In this document: piece after piece, positions 20,520 through 41,616 of the stretch
How the letters are laid out: every line of letters begins with the position of its first letter
Position numbering within the stretch: position 1 is the stretch's first letter
Origin: an uncultured Gemmatimonadaceae bacterium
Lineage (GTDB): Bacteria; Gemmatimonadota; Gemmatimonadetes; Gemmatimonadales; GWC2-71-9
Assembly: GCA_964642475.1 (NCBI GenBank)
Contig: CAZXRC010000001.1
Location: 3,560-67,559, forward strand
Reading direction: 5' to 3'
Length of the DNA stretch: 64,000 bases
Made by a program: the position numbers and the translations under genes
Notes under the pieces: generated by a model
Told to the model about the DNA's origin: nothing
Databases searched by the model: none
The model's input: the letters and a program-made list of their open reading frames with translations, nothing else

Positions 20520-20544
20520 CAACCGCGCCTGACTCAACCGCGCC
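20520..20544. repeat. Direct repeat CAACCGCGCC-N5-CAACCGCGCC in the long non-coding gap
   Basis: Read directly: copies at 20520-20529 and 20535-20544 are identical (15-nt period). Confidence 0.7.
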
Positions 20545-20715
20545 ACCGGTGCAGACCCCGGGCACGGATGGTTGCGGTCCCACCACATGTCCGGGACGAG
20601 GGCTCCAAAATGAGGTCCTTGCGCCGGCCCTGACGCGTAGAGGTAAGGGTTTCTCGAATAACGAGTTAGCCAACGTCTCGGTGGCCGGCACGTCGCGCCG
20701 GCCAATCCCGGACGC

Positions 20716-20731
20716 TGGCTCGCCTATTGCG
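20716..20731 (+). promoter_or_regulatory. Candidate sigma-54 (-24/-12) promoter upstream of the asnB-like gene
   Basis: TGGCTCgcctaTTGCG versus consensus TGGCAC-N5-TTGCW (9 of 11 defined positions; GG and GC correctly spaced). Intergenic, correct strand, but 275 nt from ATG 21005. Confidence 0.3.
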
Positions 20732-21004
20732 TTCCCCCGGCCCGAAGGCAGGGGAAATCTTGTCCCGGCCTGGTGCCGCGTCCCTCGGTAATCCGCTTAC
20801 TCGAACCCCGTGACAGCGCTGCCAGCAAATCACTCCGCCGGTCGAGCCGCCCGGGCGCCGCTGCGCTCGTTCCGCCATCCGAGGCTGGCGGTCGCCCCCG
20901 CACGGGGACGCCCGGCGCGGCCGCGGGCATTCCAACACCCGCTTGAGCTCCGCATTCTGCCCCGTCTCGAGGAGACGCCGGGCAGGGGAGCACGCTGAAA
21001 CTCG

Positions 21005-23104
21005 ATGTGCGGCATTCTGGCGGTGATGCAGCGGGACGGCGCGCCCATCGATCCCGAGCTGGTCGCGCGCATGCGGGACACGATGGCCCATCGTGGCCCC
21101 GACGACGTCGGACTGCGGTCCGATGGGGTGGTGGCCCTGGCCCATCGGCGCCTGTCGATTCTCGACCTGACCGCGTCGGGCCACCAGCCGATGTGCAATG
21201 AGGATGGCACGATCTGGATCGTCCTCAACGGCGAGATCTACAACTACGTCGAGCTGACGGCCGATCTGATCCGGCGGGGCCACCAGTTCCGCTCCCGCTC
21301 CGACACCGAGACGATCATCCACCTCTACGAGGAGTACGGGGTCGGCTGCCTCGACCACCTCGTCGGGATGTTCGGCTTCGTGCTGTGGGATGCGCGCAAG
21401 CAGCAACTGTTCGCCGCCCGGGACCGGATCGGTATCAAGCCCGTGTACTACCACGAAACGCCCGAGCGGTTGACCTGCGCCTCCGAGATGAAGGCCCTGG
21501 TCGACGATCCGGCCGTGGCCCGCCGAGTCGACCACCGCGCCATGGCGGACTTTCTCTTCGCCGGTCAGTACCTCGGTGGCAAGACGCCGTTCGAGGGCGT
21601 CCGCGAGCTGCCCCCCGCCCACTATCTCCTCGCCACCCGCGAGCGTACGACGCTGGCCCGCTACTGGGATCTCGAATTCGACTACCACGAGCGGTCATGG
21701 GATGACACCGTGGCCGAGGTGCGTTCGCTGCTCGATGATGCGGTGCGAATCCATTGTCGCAGCGATGTCCCCCTGGGATGTCACTTGAGCGGCGGTCTCG
21801 ACTCGAGCACGGTAACGAGTTTCGCGGTGCGCCACTGCCAGGGAATGCCGGCGTTCGCGATCCGCTTCGAGGGCAATGGGAAGCAGTACGACGAGACCCG
21901 TTACGCCAAGGCGGTCTGTGCCGCCAGCGGGACCCGCTACCTCGAGGCCACCCCCGGGCCGGAGGACTTCTGGCGGCTGCTGGCCTCGCTGGTCTGGCAC
22001 ATGGACACCCCGCTCTTCGGCATCGGTGCCTTCTCCTACTACACGGTCTCCCGTCTGGCCTCCCGGTTCGTGAAGGTGACGCTGACGGGTCACGGCGGCG
22101 ACGAGATCTTCGCGGGGTATCCCGCCCAGTTCGCGGCCACCTTCGGGACCACGGCGATGTTCGACCGCCTGGTGTCGGGCCATCGTCCGGCCGCACCGCT
22201 GGCCCGCCTGACACGCCTGCTCCGGGAGCGCGGAGTCCGGGGCGTCTACGGCGCCCTCGCCAGGCGGCTGCGGAACCTGGCGCGGGGGCCGGAGACCCTG
22301 GAGGAGGTGTGGGTCGGGCTCCACTGCAACGTGCTGGACCGGTCGAATTACGAGACCGGCTTCGTGCGGGGACTGGGGGGGTACTCGCCGCTCGAGGAAT
22401 ACCTGGCGCCCTTCCGGCGGGCCCGCACCACGGAGACTCTGGATCGCTGCCTCTACCACGACCTGGTGAGTTACCTCCCGAGCCTGCTGCACCAGGAGGA
22501 CCGGGTCAGTATGTCGCTCTCAGTCGAGTCGCGGGTACCGCTCCTCGACCATCGCCTGGTTCAGCTGCTGGCCACCGTCCCACCCGCCCTGAAAGCCCGT
22601 AACCGCGAACCCAAGGCGCTGCTGCGGGCCGCCGCGCGGGGGACCGTGACCGATCAGGTCCTCGACCGACGGGACAAGGTGCCGTTTTCCGTCCCGATCC
22701 AGCCCTGGCTCGAGGGGCCGCTCTGGCCCCGCATCCGGGAGCTGCTCGAGTCCCGGGTCGCGCGCGACCGGGGCATCTTCCGCCACCCGGCGGGCGGCAT
22801 CCGGCCGGACACGCCCGACCTGTGGAACCGGCTCAACATCGAGGTCTGGCACCGGATCTTCATCGACCAGGATCCGGCCTGGACCGCCATGATCGGGGCC
22901 GCGCGGGAGGGAGCTGGCCGGGGAGTCGAGACCGGGTCGGCAAGCGCTTCGGGAGTCGTGCGGGACCCGCCTCGAAGCAAGCGCCGGGCCCACCTCGAAG
23001 AAGAAGCGGGCGCCGGCGGGGGAAGGGGTCGCCTCCACCATGAGGGCCGGCCGCATCGTCTGGACCAGCTTGCGGCGGACCTGGAGCCCGAGCCCGGCAC
23101 CTGA
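21005..23104 (+). CDS. Asparagine synthase (glutamine-hydrolysing)-family amidotransferase
   Basis: 699 aa. Starts MCGILAV (Ntn Cys). Strings: HRGPDD, RRLSILDL, LNGEIYNY, LSGGLDSS (PP-loop). About 70-aa charged C-terminal extension. This paralogue type is commonly embedded in EPS/O-antigen loci. Confidence 0.8.
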   Translation: MCGILAVMQRDGAPIDPELVARMRDTMAHRGPDDVGLRSDGVVALAHRRLSILDLTASGHQPMCNEDGTIWIVLNGEIYNYVELTADLIRRGHQFRSRSDTETIIHLYEEYGVGCLDHLVGMFGFVLWDARKQQLFAARDRIGIKPVYYHETPERLTCASEMKALVDDPAVARRVDHRAMADFLFAGQYLGGKTPFEGVRELPPAHYLLATRERTTLARYWDLEFDYHERSWDDTVAEVRSLLDDAVRIHCRSDVPLGCHLSGGLDSSTVTSFAVRHCQGMPAFAIRFEGNGKQYDETRYAKAVCAASGTRYLEATPGPEDFWRLLASLVWHMDTPLFGIGAFSYYTVSRLASRFVKVTLTGHGGDEIFAGYPAQFAATFGTTAMFDRLVSGHRPAAPLARLTRLLRERGVRGVYGALARRLRNLARGPETLEEVWVGLHCNVLDRSNYETGFVRGLGGYSPLEEYLAPFRRARTTETLDRCLYHDLVSYLPSLLHQEDRVSMSLSVESRVPLLDHRLVQLLATVPPALKARNREPKALLRAAARGTVTDQVLDRRDKVPFSVPIQPWLEGPLWPRIRELLESRVARDRGIFRHPAGGIRPDTPDLWNRLNIEVWHRIFIDQDPAWTAMIGAAREGAGRGVETGSASASGVVRDPPRSKRRAHLEEEAGAGGGRGRLHHEGRPHRLDQLAADLEPEPGT

Positions 23105-23217
23105 GCGGGAGGCGGGGACGGACCGCGGACGGTCGACTTGCGCGTTGCCCCCCGGTCACAGAGCAGGGTATCGTCCAGCCGCTCACCCAACCCGCGCTCA
23201 CAGGAGACCAATCTCGC

Positions 23218-24195
23218 ATGTCCCGTAACGCCGGCTTTCGCGCAGGGGAATGGGTCGAAGTGCGGAGCGCGGCTGAAATCCTCGCGACGCTCGGCAGTGA
23301 CGGAACCCTGGACCGGCTGCCCTTCATGCCCGAGATGCTGGAGTACTGCGGCAAGCGGTTTCCGGTCTATCGGCGGGCCGACAAGACCTGCGATACCATC
23401 CATGCCTCCTTGTCCCGCCGCATGGAGAACGCGGTGCACCTCGAAGGGCTGCGCTGCACCGGGGCCGCCCACGGTGGCTGCCAGGCGGAGTGCCTGCTCT
23501 TCTGGAAGGAGGCCTGGCTCAAGCGACCGGACGACACCCGGCCCGCGCCAGAGAGTGGGGGGATCACCGCCGCCCAGTTGGAGCAGAGCGCCAGAAAAGC
23601 CGGGGAGCCGGAATCGTTCGCCTGCCAGGCCACGGAGCTCTATCGCGCCACCGCCGAAATGCCCTGGTACGACCTCCGACAATATTTTCGCGAACTCCGC
23701 TCGGGCAATGTCACGCTCGGCACCATGCTCAAGACCTTCGCCATCGCCTGGTACAACGTGCTGGCCCGGCGGTTGTCCCGACTCGGCGTCAAGCGTTACC
23801 CCTACGTGGCCGGCCACTGCGTCGGCAGGACCCCGACCGAAACGCTAAGCCTGCAACCCGGCGAACTGGTCCGGGTGAAGCCGAAGGCCGAGATCATGAA
23901 GACCCTCGGGCCGGACCGGAAGAACCGGGGTCTCCTGTTCGATGTGGAGATGACCCCGTTCTGCACCCGGACCTACCGGGTTCGGCGCCGGGTGGAGCGG
24001 CTTATCAACGAAAAGACCGGCGCGATGATGACGATCCCGCGGGACTGCATCGTGCTCGACGGGGCCTACTGTGGAGGACGGCTGAGCAAGGACCGCCTCT
24101 TCTGCCCGAGGAGCATCCCCTCGTTCTGGCGCGAGATCTGGCTGGAACGGGTCCCGGCAGCCGAAGCCTCCCCGGTCGAGCGGCCGCAGCCCTGA
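23218..24195 (+). CDS. Hypothetical protein with an internally duplicated ~95-aa Cys-containing domain
   Basis: 325 aa. Residues 10-103 and 215-311 align: GE.V.V+...EI..TLG.D....L.F..EM...C....Y.V.RR ... L.G..C.G.....C.....FW+E.WL+R. No family recognised. Third codon positions are G/C-rich as in the neighbouring genes. Confidence 0.5.
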   Translation: MSRNAGFRAGEWVEVRSAAEILATLGSDGTLDRLPFMPEMLEYCGKRFPVYRRADKTCDTIHASLSRRMENAVHLEGLRCTGAAHGGCQAECLLFWKEAWLKRPDDTRPAPESGGITAAQLEQSARKAGEPESFACQATELYRATAEMPWYDLRQYFRELRSGNVTLGTMLKTFAIAWYNVLARRLSRLGVKRYPYVAGHCVGRTPTETLSLQPGELVRVKPKAEIMKTLGPDRKNRGLLFDVEMTPFCTRTYRVRRRVERLINEKTGAMMTIPRDCIVLDGAYCGGRLSKDRLFCPRSIPSFWREIWLERVPAAEASPVERPQP

Positions 24196-24227
24196 GGTGG
24201 GGCGAGTGCCCCGTGGGCCGGGCCCGC

Positions 24228-24944
24228 CTATCGCAGATCGGGGCGGCGGGCCAGCCAGTCAGCCAGCTCGAGGTCGAAGGGCGAGTCGATATTGACGACC
24301 GGCCGTTCGATCACCACCGCCGCGCAATTCTCCTCGATGATGTGCCCCCGATCCACCAGCGTCTCCCGGCGCACCGCATAACAGACCCCATTCCGGTGGT
24401 AGTAGGCGGGAATGTCCTGGCGCAGGGAGAATCGTGCGCCGTCCTCCACGTAATACCCCAGGGTCCCGGCCGGGCCCACCGTCAGGGTCTTGTGGGGACT
24501 GCAGTGCCCCGGCGTCGGACTGACCGTGGCGGCGGCGGCGAAGTCCCCCTCGAGCAGCACCCGGACGGTCCGCTCGACATCTTCGGCCCGGCGTAAGGGG
24601 CTGGTGGGTTCGAGCAGGATGGACAGGTCAAACCGGCGGCCGTGGATCTCCTCGGCCGACGTCCAGGCGTGCCGCCACATGTCGACCGACTTGGCCTTGT
24701 CCCCGGCCAGGGCCTGGGGCCGGACGAACGGGACGGCCAGCCCGTGCTGCTCGGCCTCCCGGGCAATGTCCGGATCATCCGTAGACAGCAGCGCTGCATC
24801 GAGCCAGGGCAGCTGCCGAATAACCCTGGCGGCGTGCCCGATCAGGCTGGTACCCGCGACCTCCCTCAGGTTCTTCCGGGGAATCCCTTTGCTGCCGCCA
24901 CGCGCCGGCACCACCGCCAGCACCGACACCCCATGCAGCGCCAT
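24228..24944 (-). CDS. neuA: Acylneuraminate (nonulosonate) cytidylyltransferase
   Basis: C-terminal 239 codons of ORF 24228..25190. ATG 24944 overlaps the upstream stop (ATGA). Strings: VLAVVPARGGSKGIPRKNL, LLEPTSPLR, YYHRNGVCYA. Confidence 0.8.
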   Translation of the reverse strand: MALHGVSVLAVVPARGGSKGIPRKNLREVAGTSLIGHAARVIRQLPWLDAALLSTDDPDIAREAEQHGLAVPFVRPQALAGDKAKSVDMWRHAWTSAEEIHGRRFDLSILLEPTSPLRRAEDVERTVRVLLEGDFAAAATVSPTPGHCSPHKTLTVGPAGTLGYYVEDGARFSLRQDIPAYYHRNGVCYAVRRETLVDRGHIIEENCAAVVIERPVVNIDSPFDLELADWLARRPDLR

Positions 24945-25948
24945 CAGGCAATCTCGTCCAGGGTCACGGCCCGGCCGGTGGCGTGGCTCTGGCGTCCGGC
25001 CTCGATGACGCGCAGCACCGCCACCCCGTCCTCGATGCCGCAGGTGCGGACCCTCTCGCCCCGCAGGACGTCGAGAAACTCGCGGGCGGCCGCCACGAAC
25101 ATGTCGTTCCGTTGGCACTCGAATTCCTGCACCTGCCAGTCCGAATCCAGGTCCTTCCCATGGCTCACCCGGTTCGGCCGCTCCGACCACTCGATCGTGC
25201 CCCCGTCCCCGACGAGCTGAATCCGCTTCTGGTGAGGACGGCCGTACAGATCGAGGTGCACGTTCACCCGCGGTCCCCCCGGATAGCTGAGCAGCATATC
25301 GACATTGTCGTCAGTGCTGATCTCGAGGTCGCTGATCTTCTCGATCCTGGCGACGACCTCTCCCGGCATGCCAAACAGCCACAGCATGATGTCCAGCCAA
25401 TGGCTCTCGTCCAGCAGGGCCCCGCCGCCGAGATCCCGGTGGGCCATGAAGAAGTCGCGGTAACTCTCCCACGGATGCCAGTCGGCGAGGTGGGCGGAGA
25501 GGACAAATCGCGCATGCAGCACGCGCCCGACCGCCCGCTCGGCCAGGAGCCGCTTGACGACACCGAGCGGCGGCCACCAGCGCCAGGTATACCCGAGGAG
25601 AAGCGGCACACCGGTGGCCGCCACCTCGGCCTGCAGGGTCCGGGCTTCCGCGAGCCCGGCGGAGACCGGCTTCTCCAGGAGCACCGGGATCCCCGCCGCC
25701 AGGCAGGTGAGGGCCTGGGCAACGTGGGCAGTCGGGGGGGACGCGATCACCACCCCATCATACCGGTGGCCGGCCAGTGCTTCTTCCACCGAGCCGAAGG
25801 CGCCGCCCAGCGGCAGCTCGCCGGCCAGCTCCGCTCGCCGGTCTTCCCGCGGATCCATGCAGGAGATGGTGCAGCCCTCAGCCGCGAGATTACGGGCGTG
25901 CCGCTTCCCCGCGCTGCCGGTGCCGATGATCAGAACGTGTCGGGTCAT
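24944..25948 (-). CDS. Gfo/Idh/MocA-family NAD(P)-dependent oxidoreductase
   Basis: Last 335 codons of ORF 24944..26302. ATG 25948 (MTRHVLIIGTGSAGKRHARNL). LLEKPVS (EKP motif). C-terminal alpha/beta domain. Confidence 0.75.
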   Translation of the reverse strand: MTRHVLIIGTGSAGKRHARNLAAEGCTISCMDPREDRRAELAGELPLGGAFGSVEEALAGHRYDGVVIASPPTAHVAQALTCLAAGIPVLLEKPVSAGLAEARTLQAEVAATGVPLLLGYTWRWWPPLGVVKRLLAERAVGRVLHARFVLSAHLADWHPWESYRDFFMAHRDLGGGALLDESHWLDIMLWLFGMPGEVVARIEKISDLEISTDDNVDMLLSYPGGPRVNVHLDLYGRPHQKRIQLVGDGGTIEWSERPNRVSHGKDLDSDWQVQEFECQRNDMFVAAAREFLDVLRGERVRTCGIEDGVAVLRVIEAGRQSHATGRAVTLDEIA

Positions 25949-25970
25949 GGTTCCATTCAAAGGTGCTGGG

Positions 25971-27515
25971 TTACGCCCGGATCCCCTGGACCATCGCCTG
26001 GTACGCCTCCGGATCGAACGCGACCTCGATGAACCCCGGGCCCGATTCGGGGTTCCACGACGCCAGGGCGCTCTCCAGGTCTGCCAGGGATTCGGCCCGG
26101 GTGCCCGGCAGTCGCAGTCCCTCGAGGGGCCTGAGCCAGCTCGGGTTCCGCATGAGCAGCGGCTCCTGGACCAGCCCCTTGGCGATCGCCCGGGTCCGCA
26201 CCGAGCCGTACCCCCCATCGGACAGGAGCAGCACCAGCAGGGGAAGGCGGTGCTCCACTGCGAGCTTGAGCTCGGCCACGAAGGTCCCGATGCCGCCGTC
26301 ACCCACCGCCACTACCGTCGGCACCGACCGATCGTGCAGCGCGGCCCCGATGCCGGTGGGCAGGCCGATCCCCATGTATCGCCCCTGGCCCGACCCCAGG
26401 CACCACTCGGCCTTCCGCGCCCGCCACGCGTGCTCACCGATAGTGCAGAAGTAGCCGGTATCGAGCACCAGGCGGGCCCGGCCGTTGAATCTGGCTTCCA
26501 CCGCCCGAAAGGCGTGGGCCGGCAGAAACGGTCGATCGAGCAGATGGGTGTCGAGACGGTGGAGGATCTCCCCCAGCTCCTCGAGCCCCCACGACACCTG
26601 CCCAAGCGACCCCAGGACGGTATCCAGCGCTTCCAGACCCGCGGTGGCCGCATGGGTATACCCCGGGGACAGGGCTTCCCCCATGGGATCGATCGAGACC
26701 GAGGGCGCGGAGAAGGGCGCGGCACTGAGCACTTCGCTGCTCCTGACACCGACGCACACGATGAGGTCCGCCTTCGCCAGCAGGGTCGCCTCCGGCACCA
26801 TCGCCAGACCGACACCGGTATAGACCCCGGCGGACTGCGGCAGGGTCTCGTCCAGGACGCCTTTGGCGGCGGCCGTGCTGAAGACCGGGATATGGAGCGC
26901 GGCCAGGCGCCCCGCGAGCCCCAGCCGTATCCCCAGCGTCCCCACGATCAGAATCGGCCGGCGGCTTTGTGACACCAGGCGCGTCACCTCGCCGGCCGGC
27001 GGAGTGGGCGGGGGAGGGATCGGGTCCGCCTGATCGATGGCGCCGTCGGCCACCTCCAACAGGACCGGCCCGGGAGCCTCCGCCGCCGACCAGTCGGCCA
27101 GTTCGCGGTATCCAGGTCCGTTGCGGCTGATGAAGCGTCGCCCTTTGGCGACGGCGCCCACCAGCAGCCCCTGGTCGATCCGCTTGTGTTGCTTGGCCGC
27201 GGGGGTTCCAGGCGGATATGCCTCGGCGATGGCGACCAGGGGCCAGGATTCGAAGTGACAGGCAGCGAGACCCGGAAGCATGTTGGCCAACCCGGGTCCC
27301 TTGATCGAGAGCGCCACACCCGGTACGCCGGTCAGGCGACCGAGGACTCCAGCCATGATGGCCGCTGCCGCTTCACAGTGCACCGGATAGAAGGGCATGC
27401 CGGCTCGAATTACGGCATCCGCGATAGTCAGCGTGGGACCGCTGCCCAGCACCCCGAAGCCCGCGGGAGTTCCCGCGCCAACGATGTCCCGCGACAGCAT
27501 TTCGAGCGCGCTCAC
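25971..27515 (-). CDS. Thiamine-pyrophosphate-dependent enzyme (acetolactate-synthase-like fold)
   Basis: 514 aa. N-terminal Pyr domain (HCEAAAAIMAGVLGRLTG.PGVALSIKGPGLANMLPGLA). C-terminal TPP motif VGDGGIGTFVAELKLAVEHRLPLLVLLLSDGGYG. Confidence 0.75.
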   Translation of the reverse strand: MSALEMLSRDIVGAGTPAGFGVLGSGPTLTIADAVIRAGMPFYPVHCEAAAAIMAGVLGRLTGVPGVALSIKGPGLANMLPGLAACHFESWPLVAIAEAYPPGTPAAKQHKRIDQGLLVGAVAKGRRFISRNGPGYRELADWSAAEAPGPVLLEVADGAIDQADPIPPPPTPPAGEVTRLVSQSRRPILIVGTLGIRLGLAGRLAALHIPVFSTAAAKGVLDETLPQSAGVYTGVGLAMVPEATLLAKADLIVCVGVRSSEVLSAAPFSAPSVSIDPMGEALSPGYTHAATAGLEALDTVLGSLGQVSWGLEELGEILHRLDTHLLDRPFLPAHAFRAVEARFNGRARLVLDTGYFCTIGEHAWRARKAEWCLGSGQGRYMGIGLPTGIGAALHDRSVPTVVAVGDGGIGTFVAELKLAVEHRLPLLVLLLSDGGYGSVRTRAIAKGLVQEPLLMRNPSWLRPLEGLRLPGTRAESLADLESALASWNPESGPGFIEVAFDPEAYQAMVQGIRA

Positions 27516-28456
27516 CGGGCCCGCTCCAGCTCGGCCAGCACCTTCTCGGCGGCCCGGCCGCAGACCACGCGGACGGCGTCGGGCGAGTACCCGCCACAGT
27601 GCGGGGTGATGAGGACGTTGTCCTGCGTCCGTGAGAGCGCGAGGAGCGGATTGCCCTCGATCTCCGGCTCCCCTTCCAGCACATCGACGCCCACTCCGCC
27701 GAGCCGCCCGGTCGACACCGCCTCCGCCAGGGCCCGCTCGTCCGCGACCGCGCCGCGCGAGGTGTTGACGAAGATCGCCCCCGGCTTCATCCGCGCGATC
27801 AGGTCTCGACTCACCAGGCCACGGGTCGTTTCGCTCAGATGCACGTGGACCGAGAGCACGTCGGCGCGCGAGGCCACCTCGTCAAGAGTGGCCGGCTCGA
27901 TCCCCTCCGGCCAGGGCGAGACCACCGGATCGAACCCTACCACCGTCATCCCGAAAGCCCGGGCGTACCGGGACATCCACTGCCCGATCCGGCCGCATCC
28001 GATGACTCCGAGGGTCCGCCCATTGAGCATCATCCCCGGGAAGTCTTCCCGGACCCACTGCCCGGCTCGGGTGTGAGCCACGGCCGGGACGAGCCTCCGG
28101 GCCAGGGCCATGACGAGCGCCCAGGTCAGCTCCGCGGCCGGGGTCAGATTGCGGAGCAGCTCCGGATCCTCCTTGAGCGTGCGGACCGGGATCCCCCGAA
28201 CCCCGGTCTCTCCCCGCTCGATGTGATCCGACCCGGTCGTGGCGGTCGAGATCACCCGCAGGTTCGGCGCGGCCCGGACCATCGCATCGGTGATCCGCAC
28301 CTTCATCGAGGCGTCGATGAGCGCGTACGACCCGCTCAGGGCTTCCGCCACCCGAGCGGGCTCGGCCGGCACATGGGACAGCTGGCAGCGGTCACCGATG
28401 ACCTCCTGGGCCGCCTCCGCACCTTCGGCGGGCCCGACGTACACCACACGCTTCAT
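27512..28456 (-). CDS. D-isomer-specific 2-hydroxyacid dehydrogenase (NAD-binding)
   Basis: 314 aa. Strings: LGVIGCGRIGQWMSRYARAFGMTVVGFDP, FVNTSRGAVADE, ITPHCGGYS. Its stop overlaps the start of the downstream TPP-enzyme gene (4-nt overlap at 27512-27515). Confidence 0.8.
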   Translation of the reverse strand: MKRVVYVGPAEGAEAAQEVIGDRCQLSHVPAEPARVAEALSGSYALIDASMKVRITDAMVRAAPNLRVISTATTGSDHIERGETGVRGIPVRTLKEDPELLRNLTPAAELTWALVMALARRLVPAVAHTRAGQWVREDFPGMMLNGRTLGVIGCGRIGQWMSRYARAFGMTVVGFDPVVSPWPEGIEPATLDEVASRADVLSVHVHLSETTRGLVSRDLIARMKPGAIFVNTSRGAVADERALAEAVSTGRLGGVGVDVLEGEPEIEGNPLLALSRTQDNVLITPHCGGYSPDAVRVVCGRAAEKVLAELERAR

Positions 28457-28501
28457 GGACTCTCCAGTTCACCTGCGTTTAGCCGGCGGGCCGCGGACGG
28501 C

Positions 28502-29224
28502 TCAATAGGACTTCTTCAGCGGCCGAATGCTGAGATCGGTGACTTCGGCGGTGGCCGGAAGCCTGAGGCAGGTCAGGACCACCTCGGCCACGTCCTGCGG
28601 CTGTAACAGCACCTCGGGCTGGTAGGTCTTTCCGTCCTCGGCGTACAACCCCTCCTGCATGGGGGTTGCGGTACGGCCTGGATAGACGCTCAGCACCCGG
28701 ATCCCCTCGGGATTGACCTCCGCCCGCAGCGCGTCCGTGAGGGCCCGCAGCGCGTGCTTGCTCGCGGCATACTGCCCGACCGTAGCCTGGGAGGATAGCC
28801 CTGCGCTGGAGTTGATGACGACGATCTGACCGGGAGGGTGGCGCAACCGTGGAAGACAGACCTGCACCAGGCGGTAGTTCGCGCGTACGTTGACGCGGTA
28901 CAGCTCATCGAGGTCGGCCGCCGGCGTGGTGGCCACGGCGCCACGGGCAATCGCGCCGGCGCTCAGCACCAGCATGTCCAGCGTGGGGTGGTTGGCCTCG
29001 AGGTGCGCCTGGAGCGCGTCGAGCTCGTGCTCCACGCCCAGATCGACGGCCTTGATGGAGTGGCCCGCGCCGGCCAGCGCCCCCTGTACCGCCGCCAGTT
29101 TCTCCGGACGGCGTCCGACCAGACACACCCTGGCACCGCTGAGCGCGAGCCCCTCCGCGATGGCTCGTCCGATGCCGCTCCCCGCACCGGTGACGAGAGC
29201 GACACGGCCTGCCAGCGACTGCAT
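28502..29224 (-). CDS. Short-chain dehydrogenase/reductase (classical SDR)
   Basis: 240 aa. Strings: VALVTGAGSGIGRA, NSSAG, YAASKHAL (YxxxK). Confidence 0.8.
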   Translation of the reverse strand: MQSLAGRVALVTGAGSGIGRAIAEGLALSGARVCLVGRRPEKLAAVQGALAGAGHSIKAVDLGVEHELDALQAHLEANHPTLDMLVLSAGAIARGAVATTPAADLDELYRVNVRANYRLVQVCLPRLRHPPGQIVVINSSAGLSSQATVGQYAASKHALRALTDALRAEVNPEGIRVLSVYPGRTATPMQEGLYAEDGKTYQPEVLLQPQDVAEVVLTCLRLPATAEVTDLSIRPLKKSY

Positions 29225-29347
29225 GGCACCTCATCGGTTCAAGGTCTCGTGCCGGACTCGTGACGCGCCGGTGAGTCCACCGCGCATCTCGCGAAGGGTC
29301 AGGCCCACGACCCACGAGCCTGGCCCGCAATTCCGCGGCAGGGGGCT

Positions 29348-29363
29348 CGCAAGTGGCGTGCCG
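29348..29363 (-). promoter_or_regulatory. Candidate sigma-54 (-24/-12) promoter of the SDR...neuA operon
   Basis: Minus strand reads CGGCACgccacTTGCG (9 of 11 consensus positions, spacing exact), about 125 nt upstream of ATG 29224, in the 200-bp spacer. An inverted repeat GACTCC-N5-GGAGTC (29381-29397) lies just upstream. Confidence 0.4.
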
Positions 29364-29424
29364 GAGAGCCGGGGGACACCGACTCCGACCAGGAGTCAGC
29401 GGAGCACTCCGGCCGTCCGGTTCT

Positions 29425-30528
29425 TCACGGCCGTTCGGAAGCGCGACGCAGATCCAGCTCGAAGAAGAACCGGGTGCCGGTCTCCTGCTGAACCGGTTCG
29501 ACCTTGAGGTTGGATCGCATGGCCTCGACCAGCTTGCGGCAGATCGAGAGGCCCAGCCCGGCGCCGGAGAAGGCGTACTCGCCCTGCTTCTGGCGTCGGC
29601 GGAACGGCTCGAACAGAGTCAGGATGGCCTGGGGCGGGATGCCCCGCCCGGTATCGCGCACCGAGAAAACCACCTTGTCCCCCTCCCCTTCATCGGCCCG
29701 CAGCTCCACGTATCCCTCCGAGGTGAACTTGAGGGCGTTGGTGGTGAGGTTGAGGAGGACGCGGGAGAGTGCCACCGGGAAACCGACCCGCAGGTCGCTC
29801 TGGGGCATGTGCATCCGGACGGTGAGTCCCTTCTCTTCCGCGATCGGCTGCACGATGTCCCGTACCGATTCGAAGATGTCGGCGATGGAGAACGGCAGCG
29901 GATCGAGATCGACCAGCCGATCCCCACCCCGAGCCAGCTCGATGACATCGCTGGCCATGGACGACAGGCCGAACGCCGCCGAGTAGATCAGGCCGAGCTG
30001 GCGCTCCTGCACCGGGGTGATGGGCCCGCTGCGGCCGCGCTGCAGGGTCTCCGCCAGGAACAGGATCGAGGTCAGCGGAGAGCGGAGATCGTGGGCCACC
30101 TCCACCACCAGTTCCATCCCGTCGGGGCCCGAGAGCCGATTGGCGAAGTGCTGGGCCCAGTCCGGTTCGATCGCCTGGGAAATCGACTCGATGGCTCTCA
30201 GCACCCCCAGGAGCTGGGCGGGCGGGGGCGGCGGATCGAGGCGCGCGGCGCCGGCCAGGAAACCGCGCCGGATCAGCTCCAGGAGCCGCCGGCTCAGGAC
30301 GGTGCGGGGAACCTCCTCCGCGGCCGACTCTCCCCGCCCGGCCCGCTCGATGGCGCCCACCAGCAGCCGGAGCTGCCCCCGAACTTCCTCCTCGGACGGA
30401 CTGTCCTCGGCCACCTGGAGCCAACCGGCCGCGACCTCGTCGGCGACCCGCTCGATGATCTTCCAGAGTCCGGCCGGCTGGTCCGCCGGCCCCGCGGGGT
30501 GGCCGGCGGCAAGGCTCAGTTCACTCAC
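29425..30528 (-). CDS. Sensor histidine kinase, soluble (no predicted TM segments)
   Basis: 367 aa. H-box VVEVAHDLRSPLTSI. N/G boxes LLNLTTNALKFT, RDTGRGIP, GAGLGLSI. GTG start overlaps the response-regulator stop (GTGA 30525-30528). Confidence 0.8.
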   Translation of the reverse strand: MSELSLAAGHPAGPADQPAGLWKIIERVADEVAAGWLQVAEDSPSEEEVRGQLRLLVGAIERAGRGESAAEEVPRTVLSRRLLELIRRGFLAGAARLDPPPPPAQLLGVLRAIESISQAIEPDWAQHFANRLSGPDGMELVVEVAHDLRSPLTSILFLAETLQRGRSGPITPVQERQLGLIYSAAFGLSSMASDVIELARGGDRLVDLDPLPFSIADIFESVRDIVQPIAEEKGLTVRMHMPQSDLRVGFPVALSRVLLNLTTNALKFTSEGYVELRADEGEGDKVVFSVRDTGRGIPPQAILTLFEPFRRRQKQGEYAFSGAGLGLSICRKLVEAMRSNLKVEPVQQETGTRFFFELDLRRASERP

Positions 30529-32048
30529 TCCCGCTGCCCCGTGTTCTCTTCGCGCTGGAAGCTGTGCTTGTCCATCAGGCGGTAGAGCGTGGTCCGGTCG
30601 ATGTTCGCCAGCCGGGCGGCCTTGGACATGTTGCCACCGGACCGTCCCACCAGTCGCGCGAGATACTCCTTCTCGAACTGGGCGACGACACGATCCTTGG
30701 CGATGTGAAACGCTTCGTCGAGTACGGGCGTGGTCAGCGCGACCTCCGCCGGGGCCTCGGACCCGTCCTCGTAGATCGGAATGTAGTTCGGCTGGATGAC
30801 CTGGTCCGGTTCCGCCAGGACCGCGACGTGCTCGATCACGTTCTGCAGCTCCCGGACGTTCCCCCGCCAGGGCCGCGAGCGGAGGAAGGCGATGGCCGCG
30901 TCGGACAGGCGCGGCACCCGGTCGCCCATCTGCCGGTGACGCTGCCAGTAGTGGGTCAGGAAGTGATTGGCGAGGAGAGGGATGTCCTCCGGCCGCTTAC
31001 GCAGTGGCGGCAGCTTGATGGGGACCACCCGCAGGCGGTAGAACAGGTCCCCCCGCAGAATCCCCTGATTCACCGCCTCCTGGGGGTCTCGGTTGGTCGC
31101 GGCGATGTAACGCACATCGACGACCGCGTCCTGGCTCTCGCTGCCCACCCGGCGGACCACCCCATCCTGCAGCACCCGGAGCAGCTTGGCCTGCAGCGGC
31201 ATGGTCATTTCGGTGAGCTCGTCCAGGAAGAACGTGCCCCCGTTGGCGGTCTCGATCAGACCGGGTTTGTCGCGGTCGGCGCCGGTAAAGGCCCCCTTGC
31301 GGTGGCCGAACAGCTCCGATTCGAGTAGCTGTTCCGGCAGCGCGGCGCAGTTGATGGCCACCAGGGCCCGAGTGGCCCGGCGGCTGTGCTGATGGATGAA
31401 CTGGGCGATCACTTCCTTGCCGGTACCGCTCTCCCCGGAGATAAAGACCGAGGCGTCGGTGGCAGCCACCTTCCGGGCCAGGTCCACCGCCTTGCGAAAG
31501 GTCGGCGAGATGCCGATCAGCGAGATCTTCTCGCTGTGCCCTCCCTGCTTGGCGAGCTGGAGCTTGAGGTCCCGGGTCTCCCGGGCCACCATCACGGCGT
31601 GCGAGGCCCGTCCGATCAGGACCTGGAGGTGGGTGGCCGAGAACGGTTTGGGGAGGTAGTCCCAGGCGCCGTGGCGCAGCGCTTCGATACTGCTCGCCAC
31701 GCTGGGGTTGCCGGTCATGACGACGACGATCGTTTCCTTCTGGGTCTCGAGTGCCGCCCGCAGGATCTCGATTCCCGAGATCTGGGACATGTAGAGGTCG
31801 ACCAGGACGATATCGAACTTGCGGCGACGGACGGTCTCCAGCGCCTCCTCGCCGCGGCCGATGGTCGTGACGCTGTACCCATCGGATTGCAGCACCGTGG
31901 CGCAGCTCTCCCGCAGGGTGCGCTCGTCGTCGATGATCGCAATGCGGATGCTCGCCTTGATGTCATCCGGGATCGAGAGGGGATCGCGCTCGTTGACCGG
32001 CGGCTGTCCCCGGTTCGACGCCCCGCCCTCACTCGCCATGGCACCCAT
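30525..32048 (-). CDS. Sigma-54-dependent response regulator (NtrC family: REC + AAA+ + Fis-type HTH)
   Basis: ORF 30525..32108. REC: IAIIDDE...DIVLVDLYM. AAA+: GESGTGKEVIAQFIH and the GAFTGA sigma-54 contact motif. C-terminal HTH: NMSKAARLANIDRTTLYRLM. I favour ATG 32048 (AGGGG-like SD upstream); GTG 32108 is also possible. Confidence 0.85.
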   Translation of the reverse strand: MGAMASEGGASNRGQPPVNERDPLSIPDDIKASIRIAIIDDERTLRESCATVLQSDGYSVTTIGRGEEALETVRRRKFDIVLVDLYMSQISGIEILRAALETQKETIVVVMTGNPSVASSIEALRHGAWDYLPKPFSATHLQVLIGRASHAVMVARETRDLKLQLAKQGGHSEKISLIGISPTFRKAVDLARKVAATDASVFISGESGTGKEVIAQFIHQHSRRATRALVAINCAALPEQLLESELFGHRKGAFTGADRDKPGLIETANGGTFFLDELTEMTMPLQAKLLRVLQDGVVRRVGSESQDAVVDVRYIAATNRDPQEAVNQGILRGDLFYRLRVVPIKLPPLRKRPEDIPLLANHFLTHYWQRHRQMGDRVPRLSDAAIAFLRSRPWRGNVRELQNVIEHVAVLAEPDQVIQPNYIPIYEDGSEAPAEVALTTPVLDEAFHIAKDRVVAQFEKEYLARLVGRSGGNMSKAARLANIDRTTLYRLMDKHSFQREENTGQRE

Positions 32049-32295
32049 GAAAACCACCCCTGCCTTTTCGGCTTCTATTCGGTATCGCGGCAGTGCTGTC
32101 TGGGTCACCGGTTGGCAAGAATCGTATCATCCTCACCACAGCACGTAGGCCGGTCTCGACACCATGATGTAAGATGGCTACAGTTGGCCATATACGGAAG
32201 CCACACCAGCTTGGGCCCTGCCCGCCGGCCTCGGCATTCCGCGGGAGAAGCCACCCGCCGTGGCACTGCAACTCGCGGCAACACAGGACCTTGCC

Positions 32296-32311
32296 TGGCA
32301 CTCTGCGGGCG
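32296..32311 (+). promoter_or_regulatory. Candidate sigma-54 promoter (distal) upstream of the BY-kinase gene
   Basis: TGGCACtctgcGGGCG: perfect -24 hexamer, GC of the -12 element correctly spaced but TT missing (8 of 11). Confidence 0.3.
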
Positions 32312-32331
32312 GACCCACGGGGAGGGGAGCC

Positions 32332-32347
32332 GGGTACTATCCTTGCT
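32332..32347 (+). promoter_or_regulatory. Candidate sigma-54 promoter (proximal) upstream of the BY-kinase gene
   Basis: GGGTACtatccTTGCT: perfect -12 TTGCT, GG/GC spacing exact (9 of 11), about 105 nt upstream of ATG 32453, divergent from the NtrC-type regulator gene. Confidence 0.4.
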
Positions 32348-32452: not shown

Positions 32453-34867
32453 ATGTCCAGTAACCTGCTGCCCCCGGTTCAACCCAGCCCAACCGCCCCG
32501 TTCCCGCTCAGCACCCCGATGGCCGCCGAACTCGGTGCGGCCCGGATGGGGCCAGCGGACGACGGTGAGGGCGATGGCGTGCCGTGGCATCGCCTGATCG
32601 GGGCGGTGAAGCGGTACAAATGGCTCATCCTCGCGATCATCCTCGCCGGGACCGCCGCGGGGGTGTTCGCCTCCCGGCTGCTGCCGGGGGAGTACTCCGC
32701 GCAGGCGACGATCTGGGTGGCAAGTGCGCCGACGCAGGGCGGGCTGGTCCGGGGGCAGGAGGTGCTCGGAACGCAGGGGTGGGCTGAACTCGCCAAGTCG
32801 TTCACCGTGCTCGACGCCGTGGTCCAGGATCAGCGGCTGTACCTCAAGAAGACCAAGGCCCAGGGCACCCTCCCCCCGCTCGAAGGCCTGGCGATCAGCG
32901 AGCTGCTGCGACCGGGGGACTATGTCCTGGCCCGCTCGGCTGACGGCACCCGCTACACCCTGAAGACCTCCCGGGACTCGCTTATCGAGAGCGGGCTGGT
33001 GGCGGATTCGATCGGCCGAACGATCGGGCTCCGCTGGCATCCCGGCCCGAACGGGGTCCCGGCCCAGTCGGTCGAGTTTACCCTGAGCTCACCGCGCCAG
33101 GCCGCCGCGCGGATGCTGACCAACCTCGCGGTGGAACTTCCGCGTGACGGCAATTTCATGCGCCTCACGCTGCTCGACGAAAACCCCGACCGGGTGTACC
33201 GCTCCCTCAACTCCATCCTCGATCACTTCGTGGTTGCGGCGGGCGACCTCAAGGCCTTCAAACTGCGCGAGACCTCGCGCATCCTGGAGGAGCAGCTGGC
33301 GTCGGTGGGCGCCGAGTTGCGCAACGCCGAGTCCCGGCTGGAGAACTACAAGACTTCCATCATCACGCTCCCCTCCGAGGCCACCCCCGTCGCGCCGGGC
33401 CTGCAGATGACCCAGAGCACCGCGATCGGGCAGTACTTCAACGAGAAGATCGACCTGGAGCGGCTCCAGCGCGAGCGGGCGACCCTCGAAAGCGTCCTGA
33501 ACTCGGCCCAGCGGGGCACGCTCAATACCGTGTCGCTCCTCGCGATCGAGGCGGTGCGCCAGTCTCCCGAGTTGATGCGGAGCATGACCGACCTGAACAC
33601 GGCGGAGACCGACCTCCGGGCCCTGCAGACCCACTACACCGACCAGGCCAAGCCGGTCGAAGTGGCCCAGGCCCGGGTGGCCGCCCTGCGCGACACCGTG
33701 ATTCCCGGGCAGCTCGGCCAGACGCTGGCCTCGGTGGATTCCCGGATCCGGGAGCTGCAGGCCCACCTGGCAACGGCTTCGCGGGAGCTCCAGTCGATCC
33801 CGACCCGGGTCATCACGGAGCAGCGTCTGGACCGCGAGCGTCTGAGCGTGGCCGCGATCTACACCGACCTGCAGGCCCGCTACCAGGCCGCCCGTCTGGC
33901 CGAAGCCACCGCGATCCCCGATGTCCGGATCCTCGACCGCGCCGTCCGGCCCAACGCCCCCACGCGCAACAATGCCCCCCGGCTGATCGCGCTGGTCTTC
34001 TTCGCCAGCACGGCGGCCGCCTTCGGCCTGGCGGTACTGCTCGACATGCTGGACCGCCGAGTCCAGTACCCCGAACAGGTGAGCCAGGCGCTGGGCCTGT
34101 CCATCCTCGGTGCGGTGCCGGCGATTCGGCGGGCGAAGCGCGGCGAGCTGCCCGCCGAACAGGCCGCGCAGTTCATCGAGGCCTTCCGCACGATTCGGGT
34201 GAACCTGGCCCATTCCCTGGCGTCCGCCGGGTCGCTCAAGCTCACCATCTCGAGCCCCAATGCCGGCGACGGCAAGTCGCTGGTGTCGGCCAATCTCGCG
34301 GTCAGCTTCGCGTCCGCCGGCTACCAGACCGTCCTGATCGATGGCGACTCCCGCCGCGGCGAATTGCACCGGATGTTCGGCACCGACCGCAAGCCGGGGC
34401 TGCTGGACTATCTGCAGGGCGAAGCCACCCTGGCGGAGATCGTACGGCCCACCAGCCAGCCCGGTCTCTGGATCATCCCCTGCGGCACCCGTCGCCAGCA
34501 TGGACCGGAGCTGTTGGGATCGGGCGCCATGCAGCGGCTCCTGGCAGAGCTGGAAACCCATTACAACGCGGTGCTGGTCGACAGCCCGCCGCTCGGCGCC
34601 GGGGTCGACCCCTACGTGCTCAGTGCGGCGTTGGGGAACCTGATGCTGGTGATCCGTACCGGCGAAACCGACCGGCACATGGCGGAGGCCAAGCTCAGTC
34701 TGGTCGATCGACTCCCCATCAGGGTGGTCGGGGCGGTCTTGAACGACGTGCGGGTGGGTGGGGCGTACCGCTATTACAGCTATCTCTATGGGTACATGGC
34801 CTCCGAGGAGCCCGAGCCGGCAGGGCTGCCGACAGGCGGAGAGGCGGGAGCCCCGGCGGGGCCCTGA
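32453..34867 (+). CDS. Polysaccharide co-polymerase / tyrosine autokinase (Wzc/GumC-type BY-kinase)
   Basis: 804 aa. Wzz-like N-terminal domain with TM (WLILAIILAGTAAGVF) and a long coiled-coil periplasmic region, then a second TM. Kinase Walker A SSPNAGDGKSLVSANLA, LIDGDSRRG, VLVDSPPL. C-terminal Tyr cluster YRYYSYLYGY. Confidence 0.85.
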   Translation: MSSNLLPPVQPSPTAPFPLSTPMAAELGAARMGPADDGEGDGVPWHRLIGAVKRYKWLILAIILAGTAAGVFASRLLPGEYSAQATIWVASAPTQGGLVRGQEVLGTQGWAELAKSFTVLDAVVQDQRLYLKKTKAQGTLPPLEGLAISELLRPGDYVLARSADGTRYTLKTSRDSLIESGLVADSIGRTIGLRWHPGPNGVPAQSVEFTLSSPRQAAARMLTNLAVELPRDGNFMRLTLLDENPDRVYRSLNSILDHFVVAAGDLKAFKLRETSRILEEQLASVGAELRNAESRLENYKTSIITLPSEATPVAPGLQMTQSTAIGQYFNEKIDLERLQRERATLESVLNSAQRGTLNTVSLLAIEAVRQSPELMRSMTDLNTAETDLRALQTHYTDQAKPVEVAQARVAALRDTVIPGQLGQTLASVDSRIRELQAHLATASRELQSIPTRVITEQRLDRERLSVAAIYTDLQARYQAARLAEATAIPDVRILDRAVRPNAPTRNNAPRLIALVFFASTAAAFGLAVLLDMLDRRVQYPEQVSQALGLSILGAVPAIRRAKRGELPAEQAAQFIEAFRTIRVNLAHSLASAGSLKLTISSPNAGDGKSLVSANLAVSFASAGYQTVLIDGDSRRGELHRMFGTDRKPGLLDYLQGEATLAEIVRPTSQPGLWIIPCGTRRQHGPELLGSGAMQRLLAELETHYNAVLVDSPPLGAGVDPYVLSAALGNLMLVIRTGETDRHMAEAKLSLVDRLPIRVVGAVLNDVRVGGAYRYYSYLYGYMASEEPEPAGLPTGGEAGAPAGP

Positions 34868-34873: not shown

Positions 34874-35779
34874 TCAGGCTTCCGGGGCGGTGGCTGGCAG
34901 GTTTTCGAACGAGAGCACGCGGGACTCCGCCGGGTGGCCCAGCAGGTACCTGAGTGCGGCGGTGGCGCGATCGAGCAGCGCGGCAGGCTCCACGCTTGCC
35001 GCCCGGAGATCCGCCACCGCACTGTACCCCGCCACGAGCTTCGCCGGCCGGCCGTCCTGCCCCATGGCCGCTTCCAGCCGGCGCACCAGCTGCAGCGCCC
35101 CTTCCTCTTCCGTCTCCGGAGCCACCACCAGGAACTCCTGCTCGCCCAGCTGGGCGATCGCGTCGGAGGCCCGGCCATGGAGCCGCAGCAGGGCGTGGAG
35201 CGTGGGCGCCGGGGCTTCCGGCGCCGGCCCCGCCTCGGACAGCGCGATGCAAGCGAGGGGACGGCCCCGACGCGCCACCTCCGACCCGATCTCCCGCACC
35301 CGCACCGCCAAACCCCGTACGGTGTAGAGGCCGGTGCGGGCATCGATCAGGGCCGCTTCCCGGAGTTGATCGGCCTCCTGTTTCGCCGCGAGAAAGGTGT
35401 GAAGCCGAGTGAGCAGCGCGACGCCATCGAGCGGTTGGCCATAGAACTCCCAGGCTCCGGCCTCGTACGCCGCAAGCCGCTGGGCCCGGCCGGAGGGCCC
35501 CGCCGTCGTGATGATGATGGGGGTGGTCATCCCGAACAGCGGATCGCTCCGCAGCTGCTGACAGACCTCGAGCCCGTGAATGTCGGGCAGCTGCGCATCG
35601 AGGATCACCAGATCGGGCCGGGCCCGGCGGGCTCGCTCCAGCGCCTGCAGACCGGTGTAGGCGCGTATGACAGTGTACCCCTGCGGCGAGAGGATGCTGT
35701 CGAGCGAGCGCGCCGACCACTCCTGGTCGTTGGCGATCAGCACCACCACCGGCCGTGAGTTCACCGGGACTTCGGTCAT
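34874..35779 (-). CDS. Response regulator: REC domain + degenerate GGDEF domain
   Basis: ORF 34874..35785; ATG 35779 has an AGGGG SD. REC: VVVLIANDQE...DLVILDAQLPD. GGDEF-like: DARTGLYTVRGL...RASDAIAQLGEQEFLVVAPET. The active site reads GEQEF and the usual DxDxFK metal site is absent, while an RxxD (RASD) sits exactly 5 residues upstream. Confidence 0.7.
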   Translation of the reverse strand: MTEVPVNSRPVVVLIANDQEWSARSLDSILSPQGYTVIRAYTGLQALERARRARPDLVILDAQLPDIHGLEVCQQLRSDPLFGMTTPIIITTAGPSGRAQRLAAYEAGAWEFYGQPLDGVALLTRLHTFLAAKQEADQLREAALIDARTGLYTVRGLAVRVREIGSEVARRGRPLACIALSEAGPAPEAPAPTLHALLRLHGRASDAIAQLGEQEFLVVAPETEEEGALQLVRRLEAAMGQDGRPAKLVAGYSAVADLRAASVEPAALLDRATAALRYLLGHPAESRVLSFENLPATAPEA

Positions 35780-36140
35780 AAACACCCCTGATCAGATCGG
35801 AGGGCTGGCCCCGCGATAGTGATGCAGCGATCCCACGATTCTTTGCCGTCCCGCCGCAACATCGCCCACGTCCTGGCGGACTCCCGCACCCACTTCGGCC
35901 CTGGGGCCGAAATGTAAGTCGCTAAGAGCCAACAACTTATGAGATGACGCCGGATTTGGCTGCCCGCCGGACGGCGCCGCCTGGTGCCGGCGTCATTCTT
36001 GAGAATGCAAGGGCCGTGAACGACCGGTTGGCCGTCGGCCGAAGCATCGAGGCTGTGCCGCCGGGGCCCGCAGTCGGCCAGTTGGCGCTGGGAACTGGGC
36101 ATCGTCCGCCGTGCACCGAGACCACCCAAGGGTACCACCG

Positions 36141-36320
36141 ATGATGTCTGAGGCGATTTCCCAGAGTCAGGAGCAGCAGGCCTTGCTGGCCGAGCGCGGC
36201 GAACACCTGCGTCGGCTCGCCCGGTTTGCCTTGGTGGACGATGTCCCGAATCCCTGGGGACTGGGCGGCGGCCCACGGAACGGCTCGGGCATGGGCGAGA
36301 GCGAAACGCCGAATGTCTAG
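36141..36320 (+). CDS. Possible small protein (59 aa) translationally coupled to the Wza-like gene
   Basis: MMSEAISQSQEQQALLAERGEHLRRLARFALVDD... Third codon positions are about 80% G/C. Its stop overlaps the Wza-like ATG by 8 nt. No clear SD and no family recognised. Confidence 0.3.
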   Translation: MMSEAISQSQEQQALLAERGEHLRRLARFALVDDVPNPWGLGGGPRNGSGMGESETPNV

Positions 36321-41488: not shown

Positions 41489-41544
41489 TAAGATGACCAG
41501 GACAGGCGCTGATCGCCATGGAGCGTGAGGAGTCGAGGCGCCGT

Positions 41545-41560: not shown

Positions 41561-41616
41561 GGCTCCCGTCTCCCTGGCCGGAGCGTCGTCACCCCCAACT
41601 GCGGGACGAGATTTCC

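Follow-up and report, generated by a model that had tools for sequence, protein, structure and literature searches.

A conserved predicted sigma-54 promoter before wzc, beside an NtrC-type kinase-regulator pair in a Gemmatimonadales exopolysaccharide cluster

The stretch analysed here, a window of 64,000 nt with 68.8% G+C (64-kb window; contig CAZXRC010000001.1), carries the exopolysaccharide (EPS) cluster of an uncultured Gemmatimonadales bacterium together with a regulatory module kept throughout the order, in which a cytoplasmic histidine kinase is paired with an enhancer-binding response regulator of the NtrC type. In the spacer between the regulator gene and the divergent gene wzc we identified a conserved element, site C, which represents a predicted -24/-12 (sigma-54) promoter of the variant form YGGTAY instead of TGGCAC. 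The reading that we favour, with somewhat more confidence than doubt, is that the kinase-regulator pair would turn on the single gene wzc by sigma-54 at site C, with a motif on the other side of the pair (site A) as a plausible second promoter and with another motif in the wzc spacer (site B) and a third TGGCAC nearby as chance matches. An earlier sequence-only reading of this DNA had pointed out all these motifs, and the three with GG-N10-GC spacing indeed read as described (site A, 29363-29348 on the minus strand; site B, 32296-32311, and site C, 32332-32347, on the plus strand), as does the third TGGCAC at 32261 with its GC one nucleotide out of register. The nearest relatives of the window genes belong to metagenome-assembled Gemmatimonadales genomes, and DNA near-identical to the window is present in metagenomes from a sand filter, a bioreactor and activated sludge; two runs, X1 and X2, contain it at 100%.

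Site C has the plus-strand sequence GGGTACtatccTTGCT (GGGTACTATCCTTGCT), i.e., GGGTAC-tatcc-TTGCT. For comparison we used 48 related Gemmatimonadales loci in which wzc is divergent from the regulator gene. A MAFFT alignment of 24 of these 48 spacers, made without any motif model or position-weight matrix (PWM), revealed a conserved CGGTAc-N5-TTGCa shortly before the wzc ATG, and site C aligns there. The loose pattern NGG[TCG][ACT]Y-N5-TTGC[ATG] was found in all 48 loci on the strand of wzc, no further than 196 nt from its ATG, on the opposite strand in 5/48 and in the remainder of the spacer in 0/48, compared with 1.3% of random 196-nt windows from the same loci. In its general form, CGGTAY-N5-TTGCW, the element is shared by all 48 loci, and its distance to the ATG ranges from 41 to 106 nt. 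Positions that the pattern leaves free are biased as well (C at -26, T at -23, A at -22 and Y at -21, -20 and -16), and the flanks are unconserved, the 12 nt preceding and the 24 nt following the element carrying about 0.1 bit each; in the relatives it is not accompanied by a conserved -35 or -10. Two short blocks with invariant GG-N10-GC and nothing else conserved constitute the signature of a sigma-54 promoter, not of a sigma-70 or extracytoplasmic function (ECF) promoter. A sigma-70/ECF promoter and the binding site of a dimeric repressor were considered for site C and rejected, as the blocks are separated by only 5-6 nt, do not repeat one another and lack a conserved -35/-10 partner. Conservation of both blocks together with their spacing, as in a sigma-54 promoter, was found for site C only, and it lifts this site far above chance. 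Transcription is predicted to start at about 32357, giving wzc a leader of about 96 nt.

The sites were also scored across the window. The sigma-54 PWM was approximate, its frequencies being modelled on the published consensus, and its bit values are indicative only; ranks refer to the 128,000 positions of the window. Site C scored 10.9 bits (rank 9), site A 10.8 bits (rank 12), site B 5.9 bits (rank 87) and the third TGGCAC -1.8 bits (rank 1937), and a second PWM trained only on relatives (clade PWM, CGGTAY-N4-Y-TTGCW) ranked site C 3rd and site A 5th. Matches of at least 10.7 bits numbered 12, against 7.7 ± 2.3 in shuffles that keep the local dinucleotide content, and 83 matches reached the score of site B, against 86 ± 14 in such shuffles. 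When each spacer alone was shuffled by dinucleotides, P was 0.008 for site A and 0.05 for site C. Five of the 12 best matches fall into the intergenic 7.3% of the window (P = 0.001), and four are in promoter position before glycan genes (P = 0.0007). Site B, TGGCACTCTGCGGGCG or TGGCAC-tctgc-GGGCG, combines a good -24 half with a poor -12 half. It is not conserved in the relatives, except for a GG-N10-GC match, TGGCAGcttgcAAGCA (8.0 bits), at a similar place in the sister species (locus L001), and is most likely a chance match. The out-of-register TGGCAC is a chance match and no site. Of the -24/-12 elements that had been proposed before the tyrosine kinase gene, site C is conserved and site B is at background.

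The regulator gene (30525-32048, minus strand, or from an alternative start at 32039; we prefer 32048 because a conserved CCCAT aligns there) encodes a response regulator of the bacterial enhancer-binding protein (bEBP) family with REC, Sigma54_activat, AAA lid and HTH_8 matches. Pfam scores are 222 bits for PF00158, 88 bits for PF00072 and 32 bits for PF02954. The protein contains the Walker A motif GESGTGKE, an LDE motif and an intact GAFTGA at amino acids 249-254, and the REC motifs IIDDE...LVD...KPF are visible in the sequence, including the acidic residues. With a phospho-acceptor Asp in REC, a GAFTGA in the AAA+ domain and a Fis-type helix-turn-helix (HTH), it has the features of an NtrC-class bEBP, and activation of sigma-54 is predicted. 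Its closest solved homologues are Aquifex NtrC1 and NtrC4 and LuxO. An exact-sequence lookup of the protein returned no identical record, and a scan of a genome collection with it yielded orthologues in 80 loci at 75-93% amino-acid identity; the HTH, GGNMSKAARLANIDRTTLYRLMDKH, is practically invariant across these 80 orthologues and the window. The cytoplasmic histidine kinase (29425-30528, minus strand; HisKA and HATPase_c) is translationally coupled to the regulator by the overlap that the sequence-only reading had described, its GTG start sharing GTGA with the regulator TGA. The kinase has no transmembrane helix, judging from a maximum Kyte-Doolittle hydropathy of only 1.36 over 19 residues, and its N-terminal ~140 amino acids matched neither a Pfam family nor a solved structure. 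The regulator-kinase pair is kept in every one of the 80 loci that extends far enough; wzc is divergent from the regulator gene in 48/80, and the regulator lacks an adjacent wzc in 32/80.

The putative target gene, wzc (32453-34867, plus strand), encodes a polysaccharide co-polymerase fused to a bacterial tyrosine kinase (BY-kinase), with Wzz, GNVR and TIGR01007 matches (PF02706, PF13807; TIGR01007 at 132 bits versus a cutoff of 108). The Walker A, A' and B motifs (GDGKS, VLIDGD, VLVDSPP) are present, as is a C-terminal tyrosine cluster, YRYYSYLYGY. The Wzz/GNVR periplasmic region, the P-loop kinase motifs and the tyrosine cluster place the protein among the BY-kinases of the PCP-2a co-polymerase type. 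Because the next gene (34874-35785, minus strand) is convergent, the wzc unit, taken earlier for a glycan operon, consists of a single gene. The convergent gene, which adjoins the module in nearly all loci, encodes a REC protein whose GGDEF match is weak (17.5 bits, below cutoff). One soluble kinase thereby stands next to two response regulators, one NtrC-type and one REC-GGDEF-like, and a branched phosphorelay is possible. RNA data came from two metatranscriptome runs, X13 and X17, of wastewater and sludge, with short scattered contigs over wzc. Contigs of both runs match wzc at at least 99% identity within 32474-33619, and a wastewater contig matches the REC-GGDEF-like gene at at least 99% identity (35498-35655). 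Both genes are therefore expressed in situ.

Searching for a binding site of the activator, we found that GCAACA/TGTTGC is the most recurrent enriched word of the wzc-regulator spacer in the relatives, with 80 occurrences versus 6.8 expected (about 12-fold) and presence in 41 of 47 spacers. These hexamers cluster 80-160 nt upstream of the -24 GG, which is the usual distance of an enhancer from its promoter. In a frequent layout the palindrome GCAACA-N1-TGTTGC is followed by another GCAACA, spaced 19 nt from the first one. In 1.16 Mb of locus DNA the hexamer forms 19 close pairs. The 400 nt upstream of the regulator gene account for 15 of them; two lie in the spacer between wza and the REC-GGDEF gene, and two about 200 nt before a glycosyltransferase (GT4) gene of loci L010 and L012, there about 100 nt upstream of a CGGCCC-N5-TTGCT. 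The clusters of the relatives are likely an enhancer (upstream activating sequence). In the window, degenerate copies align to these repeats, TCGACA (32156) and GCTACA (32176), 20 nt apart, which make 32156-32181 a candidate enhancer. Closer to the promoter, 54-65 nt upstream of site C, GCAACT-cgcg-GCAACA (32268-32283, plus strand) provides two direct enhancer-like hexamers one helical turn apart. Taken together, the hexamer clusters, their distance, the confinement of the pairs and the invariant HTH make the adjacent regulator the most economical activator, and we infer that it may activate site C via GCAACA-type repeats.

The spacer also holds a look-alike. Most relatives have a conserved TGGTAYCAAAGATGCW upstream of the regulator gene (at about 70-160 nt in L002-L052), which scores 12-14 bits as a sigma-54 site. 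As a divergent sigma-54 promoter of the regulator gene this motif was rejected: a TTGACA lies exactly 17 nt upstream of TAnnAn, and the supposed -12 GC is AC in other clades. It is therefore read as a sigma-70 promoter with an extended -10 (TGG-TATCAA; TTGACA-N17-TGG-TAnnAn). The homologous block of the window, CTGTGGTGAGGATGATACGATTCTTGCC (32114-32141, minus strand), is identical in L001 and, as a promoter, degenerate. An extended -10 of this kind (TGGTAT...) can mimic sigma-54, and at 69% G+C, PWM matches of 11-14 bits are common inside genes; conservation alone separated the real site from the look-alikes.

These elements would fit together as follows. The kinase would sense an intracellular cue via its novel N-terminal domain and phosphorylate the REC domain of the regulator, as their domain content suggests. 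The regulator would then oligomerise on GCNACA-type repeats of the divergent spacer, and its GAFTGA-bearing AAA+ ring would open the sigma-54 closed complex at site C, the conserved element. Once switched on, wzc would supply the co-polymerase and tyrosine kinase that may gate polymer assembly and export. That the pair acts directly on either promoter is suggested by its position.

Several observations weigh against this reading. Seven of the 12 best PWM matches in the window sit inside genes, and a match of such strength is therefore not diagnostic. The background rate of equally good matches, which the sequence-only reading had proposed to scan for, cuts both ways when taken over the window: the 12 best matches are enriched in intergenic DNA and before glycan genes, and yet most of them are intragenic and site B is at the level of the shuffles. 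The conserved 12-14-bit match that relatives carry before the regulator gene proved to be a promoter of sigma-70 type. Both the window and its sister species have enhancer-like repeats that are degenerate and displaced, and the block with TCGACA and GCTACA has an alternative reading as a sigma-70-like TCGACA-N17-TACAGT directed towards wzc. Since bEBPs occur several to a genome of such kind, proximity is no proof of the activator. As to wzc, the metatranscriptome contigs of X13 and X17 attest no more than its expression and carry no start-site information. The 64-kb window contains no rpoN gene; in favour of the reading, a sigma-54 gene is listed for Gemmatimonas aurantiaca T-27, of the same order (additional file 1, PMC3162934). 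Regarding site A, the motif is not conserved beyond one sister species, and no GCAACA/TGTTGC repeat occurs within 260 nt upstream of it.

The sequence-only reading had gone further and let the same pair directly activate a sigma-54 promoter at either side: wzc through site B, site C or both, and the operon downstream of the kinase gene through site A. We regard this full version as unlikely; what holds of it is the wzc side, through site C in 48/48 loci and not through site B, and the other side is not established. Site A, CGGCACGCCACTTGCG on the minus strand (29363-29348; CGGCAC-gccac-TTGCG), lies 61 nt past the kinase stop and 124 nt before the ATG (29224) of a gene for a short-chain dehydrogenase/reductase (SDR). 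This gene opens a minus-strand operon (24228-29224) that by domain matches encodes the SDR, a D-2-hydroxyacid dehydrogenase, a thiamine pyrophosphate (TPP) enzyme, a Gfo/Idh/MocA oxidoreductase and a CTP_transf_3 cytidylyltransferase, previously called neuA. The motif is well placed and oriented, its spacer P value of 0.008 is low, and it fits the clade variant CGGYAC-N4-Y-TTGCR. When proteins were searched with the TPP enzyme, one relative at 78% identity came up (L161), on a contig of the same species as L001 (99.7% DNA identity). In this sister species (L001/L161) two other genes intervene and the SDR gene is absent, and AGGCATcgagcTTGCA occurs 66 nt before the 2-hydroxyacid dehydrogenase gene, there the first gene of the cassette (12.9 bits, spacer shuffle P = 0.003). 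Thus, despite the rearrangement, a -24/-12 motif is kept before the same cassette, and two independent good motifs in window and sister species argue for a functional site A. The two cassette spacers are unalignable; the motif is analogous and known from this one sister species. Also in favour of promoters on both sides, window and L001 both keep a GG-N10-GC at the position of site B.

Speaking against the two-sided version, site B is at background level, and neither the hexamer nor any other motif shared with the wzc spacer was found within 260 nt upstream of site A. Furthermore, the cassette is a lineage-specific insertion, and the relatives have no sigma-54-like motif downstream of the kinase gene. 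The insertion follows from the gene order: the AsnB-like gene and the cassette sit between the kinase gene and an NYN-domain gene, which are near neighbours in the relatives. The NYN-domain gene comes 1-2.5 kb after the kinase gene in most relatives versus 9.3 kb in the window (18586-20148), and the intervening island (20150-29424), which carries the AsnB-like gene, an ORF of 325 amino acids and the SDR...cytidylyltransferase cassette, was probably acquired. Site A lies at the edge of this insertion. The cassette is found at at least 78% identity only in the sister species (L001 = L161) and elsewhere at 57% or less, in unrelated taxa; metagenomes scanned with the 2-hydroxyacid dehydrogenase yielded nothing but short contigs of at most 62% identity, with other genes upstream. 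Being flanked on both sides by promoter-like motifs is a peculiarity of the window's lineage and not a conserved design. Site A itself is a reasonable lineage-specific candidate; plausibly, it may be a second sigma-54 promoter, serving a lineage-specific cassette for sugar modification and CMP activation.

Somewhat less likely still, in our estimate, is that the -24/-12 elements are real and served by another enhancer-binding protein, the adjacent regulator controlling other targets or only itself. The 32 of 80 loci that have the regulator without an adjacent wzc would suit this idea, as would the degenerate state of the enhancer-like repeats in the window and the different palindrome, TAGCAC-N4-GTGCA, at the wza-side sigma-54-like promoters of relatives. 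Against it, the GCAACA clusters, which hardly occur outside the promoter regions of this gene cluster, are situated between the regulator gene and site C at the distance classical for enhancers, and the divergent arrangement of bEBP gene and target has been kept in 48 loci. We retain the adjacent regulator as the probable activator of site C.

Improbable, finally, is that the motifs are no promoters here, with wzc transcribed from a sigma-70-type promoter (e.g., TCGACA-N17-TACAGT, 32156-32184) and the SDR operon by read-through from the kinase gene: the sigma-70-like match lies within a block conserved between window and L001, and PWM matches of such strength are mostly found inside genes, but the match is not conserved outside these two, and the invariant two-block GG-N10-GC with unconserved flanks in 48 loci would be left unexplained. 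As to the SDR operon, neither an intrinsic terminator nor a sigma-70-like promoter was detected in the kinase-SDR spacer, which makes read-through possible. Two G+C-rich hairpins without a T-tract occur in this region, GACTCC-tggtc-GGAGTC between the kinase gene and site A (29381-29397) and CGGCCG-N12-CGGCCG spanning the kinase stop codon (29406-29429).

Additional sigma-54-like motifs were identified elsewhere in the window. The motif TGGCACgagggCTGCT at 63511-63526 (minus strand) scores 16.2 bits, above sites A, B and C. Its position is intergenic, about 90 nt ahead of an ATG at 63422-63424. From there, a minus-strand operon (50.8-63.4 kb) encodes a Capsule_synth protein, an ABC-2 permease, a Wzt ATPase, NeuB, a UDP-GlcNAc 2-epimerase, a GT2 glycosyltransferase, a C-methyltransferase, a DUF4910 protein, an epimerase and a nucleotidyltransferase. 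The motif is probably a further sigma-54 promoter, that of this nonulosonate/capsule-type operon. The near-consensus TGGCACtgatcTTGCT at 42819-42834 (minus strand, 17.4 bits) is located 18 nt past the stop of a DAO-family oxidoreductase gene (41518-42801, plus strand), antisense into this gene. An operon of GT4, GT2 and GDSL genes (41488 to 37923, minus strand) starts 30 nt from the DAO start and has no room for a promoter of its own; in some relatives the GT4 gene has TGTTGC-N6-GCAACA and CGGCCC-N5-TTGCT directly upstream. The 42819-42834 motif may be a displaced promoter of the operon or an antisense promoter. In an 857-nt spacer, TGGCTCgcctaTTGCG at 20716-20731 (plus strand, 12.4 bits) lies 274 nt upstream of the gene for the AsnB-like amidotransferase (21005-23104) and directly follows the palindrome TGGCCGGCACGTCGCGCCGGCCA. 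No motif or inverted repeat was found that the four best promoter-position sites of the window have in common. Many relatives (L003-L016, L064, L065 and L071-L078) have a strong sigma-54-like motif of up to 17.2 bits, e.g., TGGTATggagcTTGCT, before the wza/sugar-transferase operon, with the palindrome TAGCAC-N4-GTGCA about 80 nt upstream, an enhancer type that differs from GCAACA. The corresponding region of the window (35786-36225) and L001 have neither this motif nor the palindrome, the best match being 1.9 bits.

These sites allow a wider and quite tentative proposal, which we consider doubtful as a whole. Across the Gemmatimonadales, the kinase and the NtrC-type activator might gate EPS assembly via sigma-54 transcription of wzc through GCAACA enhancers, and in the lineage of the window sigma-54 control might have extended to horizontally acquired sugar cassettes, by site A, by the 20716 motif before the AsnB-like gene and by the 63526 motif before the NeuB/NeuC/ABC-transporter operon. 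This would amount to promoter capture at island borders, and the GT4-GT2 operon would be transcribed from the near-consensus 42834 site, antisense across a DAO gene that had been inserted.

Soil and activated sludge are rich in Gemmatimonadota, and in such sludge it is the extracellular polymers that decide how flocs and biofilms behave. Our literature search found no paper on sigma-54 or EPS regulation in this phylum. A conserved promoter, a candidate enhancer and an activator gene offer a concrete handle on EPS control in Gemmatimonadota, and this handle is the single gene wzc. The type of control is an ordinary and known one. Enhancer-binding proteins that act with sigma-54 on surface polysaccharides are an established theme, and from comparative genomics Francke et al. 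(2011) inferred a broad tie of sigma-54 to the cell exterior (PMC3162934).

Among described systems, PrsK/PrsR of the PEP-CTERM/exosortase (EpsH) type (Haft et al. 2006, PMC1569441) comes closest; it likewise consists of a histidine kinase and an NtrC-type sigma-54 activator in tandem among EPS genes. At its targets, an activator motif is combined with a -24/-12 motif some 70 nt ahead of the start codon (PMC1569441), a layout like that before wzc. PrsR (TIGR02915) is the second-best NCBIfam match of the window regulator, AtoC scoring slightly higher. However, the regulator reaches 374.8 bits, below the curated TIGR02915 cutoff of 502.6; PrsK is a transmembrane protein whereas the window kinase is soluble, and TIGR02916 was not among the best 25 of 78 NCBIfam matches of the kinase. 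No exosortase, PEP-CTERM protein or PrsT was found among the scanned genes of the 64-kb window, and the targets differ, PEP-CTERM protein genes there and wzc here. Because of the score below cutoff, the soluble kinase and the lack of exosortase/PEP-CTERM genes in the window, the pair is not a member of the PrsK/PrsR system.

With NtrB/NtrC, the pair shares a REC-AAA+(GAFTGA)-HTH regulator, a cytoplasmic kinase and a GG-N10-GC promoter preceded by enhancer repeats at a distance of about 100 nt. It differs in the N-terminal domain of the kinase, which in Pfam and solved-structure searches was unrelated to any known sensor, in the enhancer half-site, which is GCAACA and not TGCACC, and in the -24 element, which is CGGTAY and not TGGCAC.

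Polysaccharide genes are switched on by enhancer-binding proteins and sigma-54 in more distant bacteria, too. BerB is a bEBP that acts with RpoN on the Bep exopolysaccharide cluster of Burkholderia cenocepacia, and EpsI/Nla24 is an enhancer-binding protein in the eps locus of Myxococcus. In Vibrio cholerae an EPS cluster is controlled by VpsR, a member of the bEBP family that has no functional GAFTGA and acts together with sigma-70; VpsR is a distant PDB match of the window regulator (7v2b). The genes berA and berB have been named as bep regulators (PMC9684580), and NtrC-regulated EPS in Vibrio vulnificus is among the cases cited in PMC3162934. Compared with the window system, which is known from sequence alone, BerB, the V. 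vulnificus NtrC and EpsI/Nla24 belong to other phyla, respond to other sensory inputs (c-di-GMP for BerB and Nla24) and are not known to be linked to a conserved single-gene wzc target. From VpsR, the window regulator is set apart by its intact GAFTGA.

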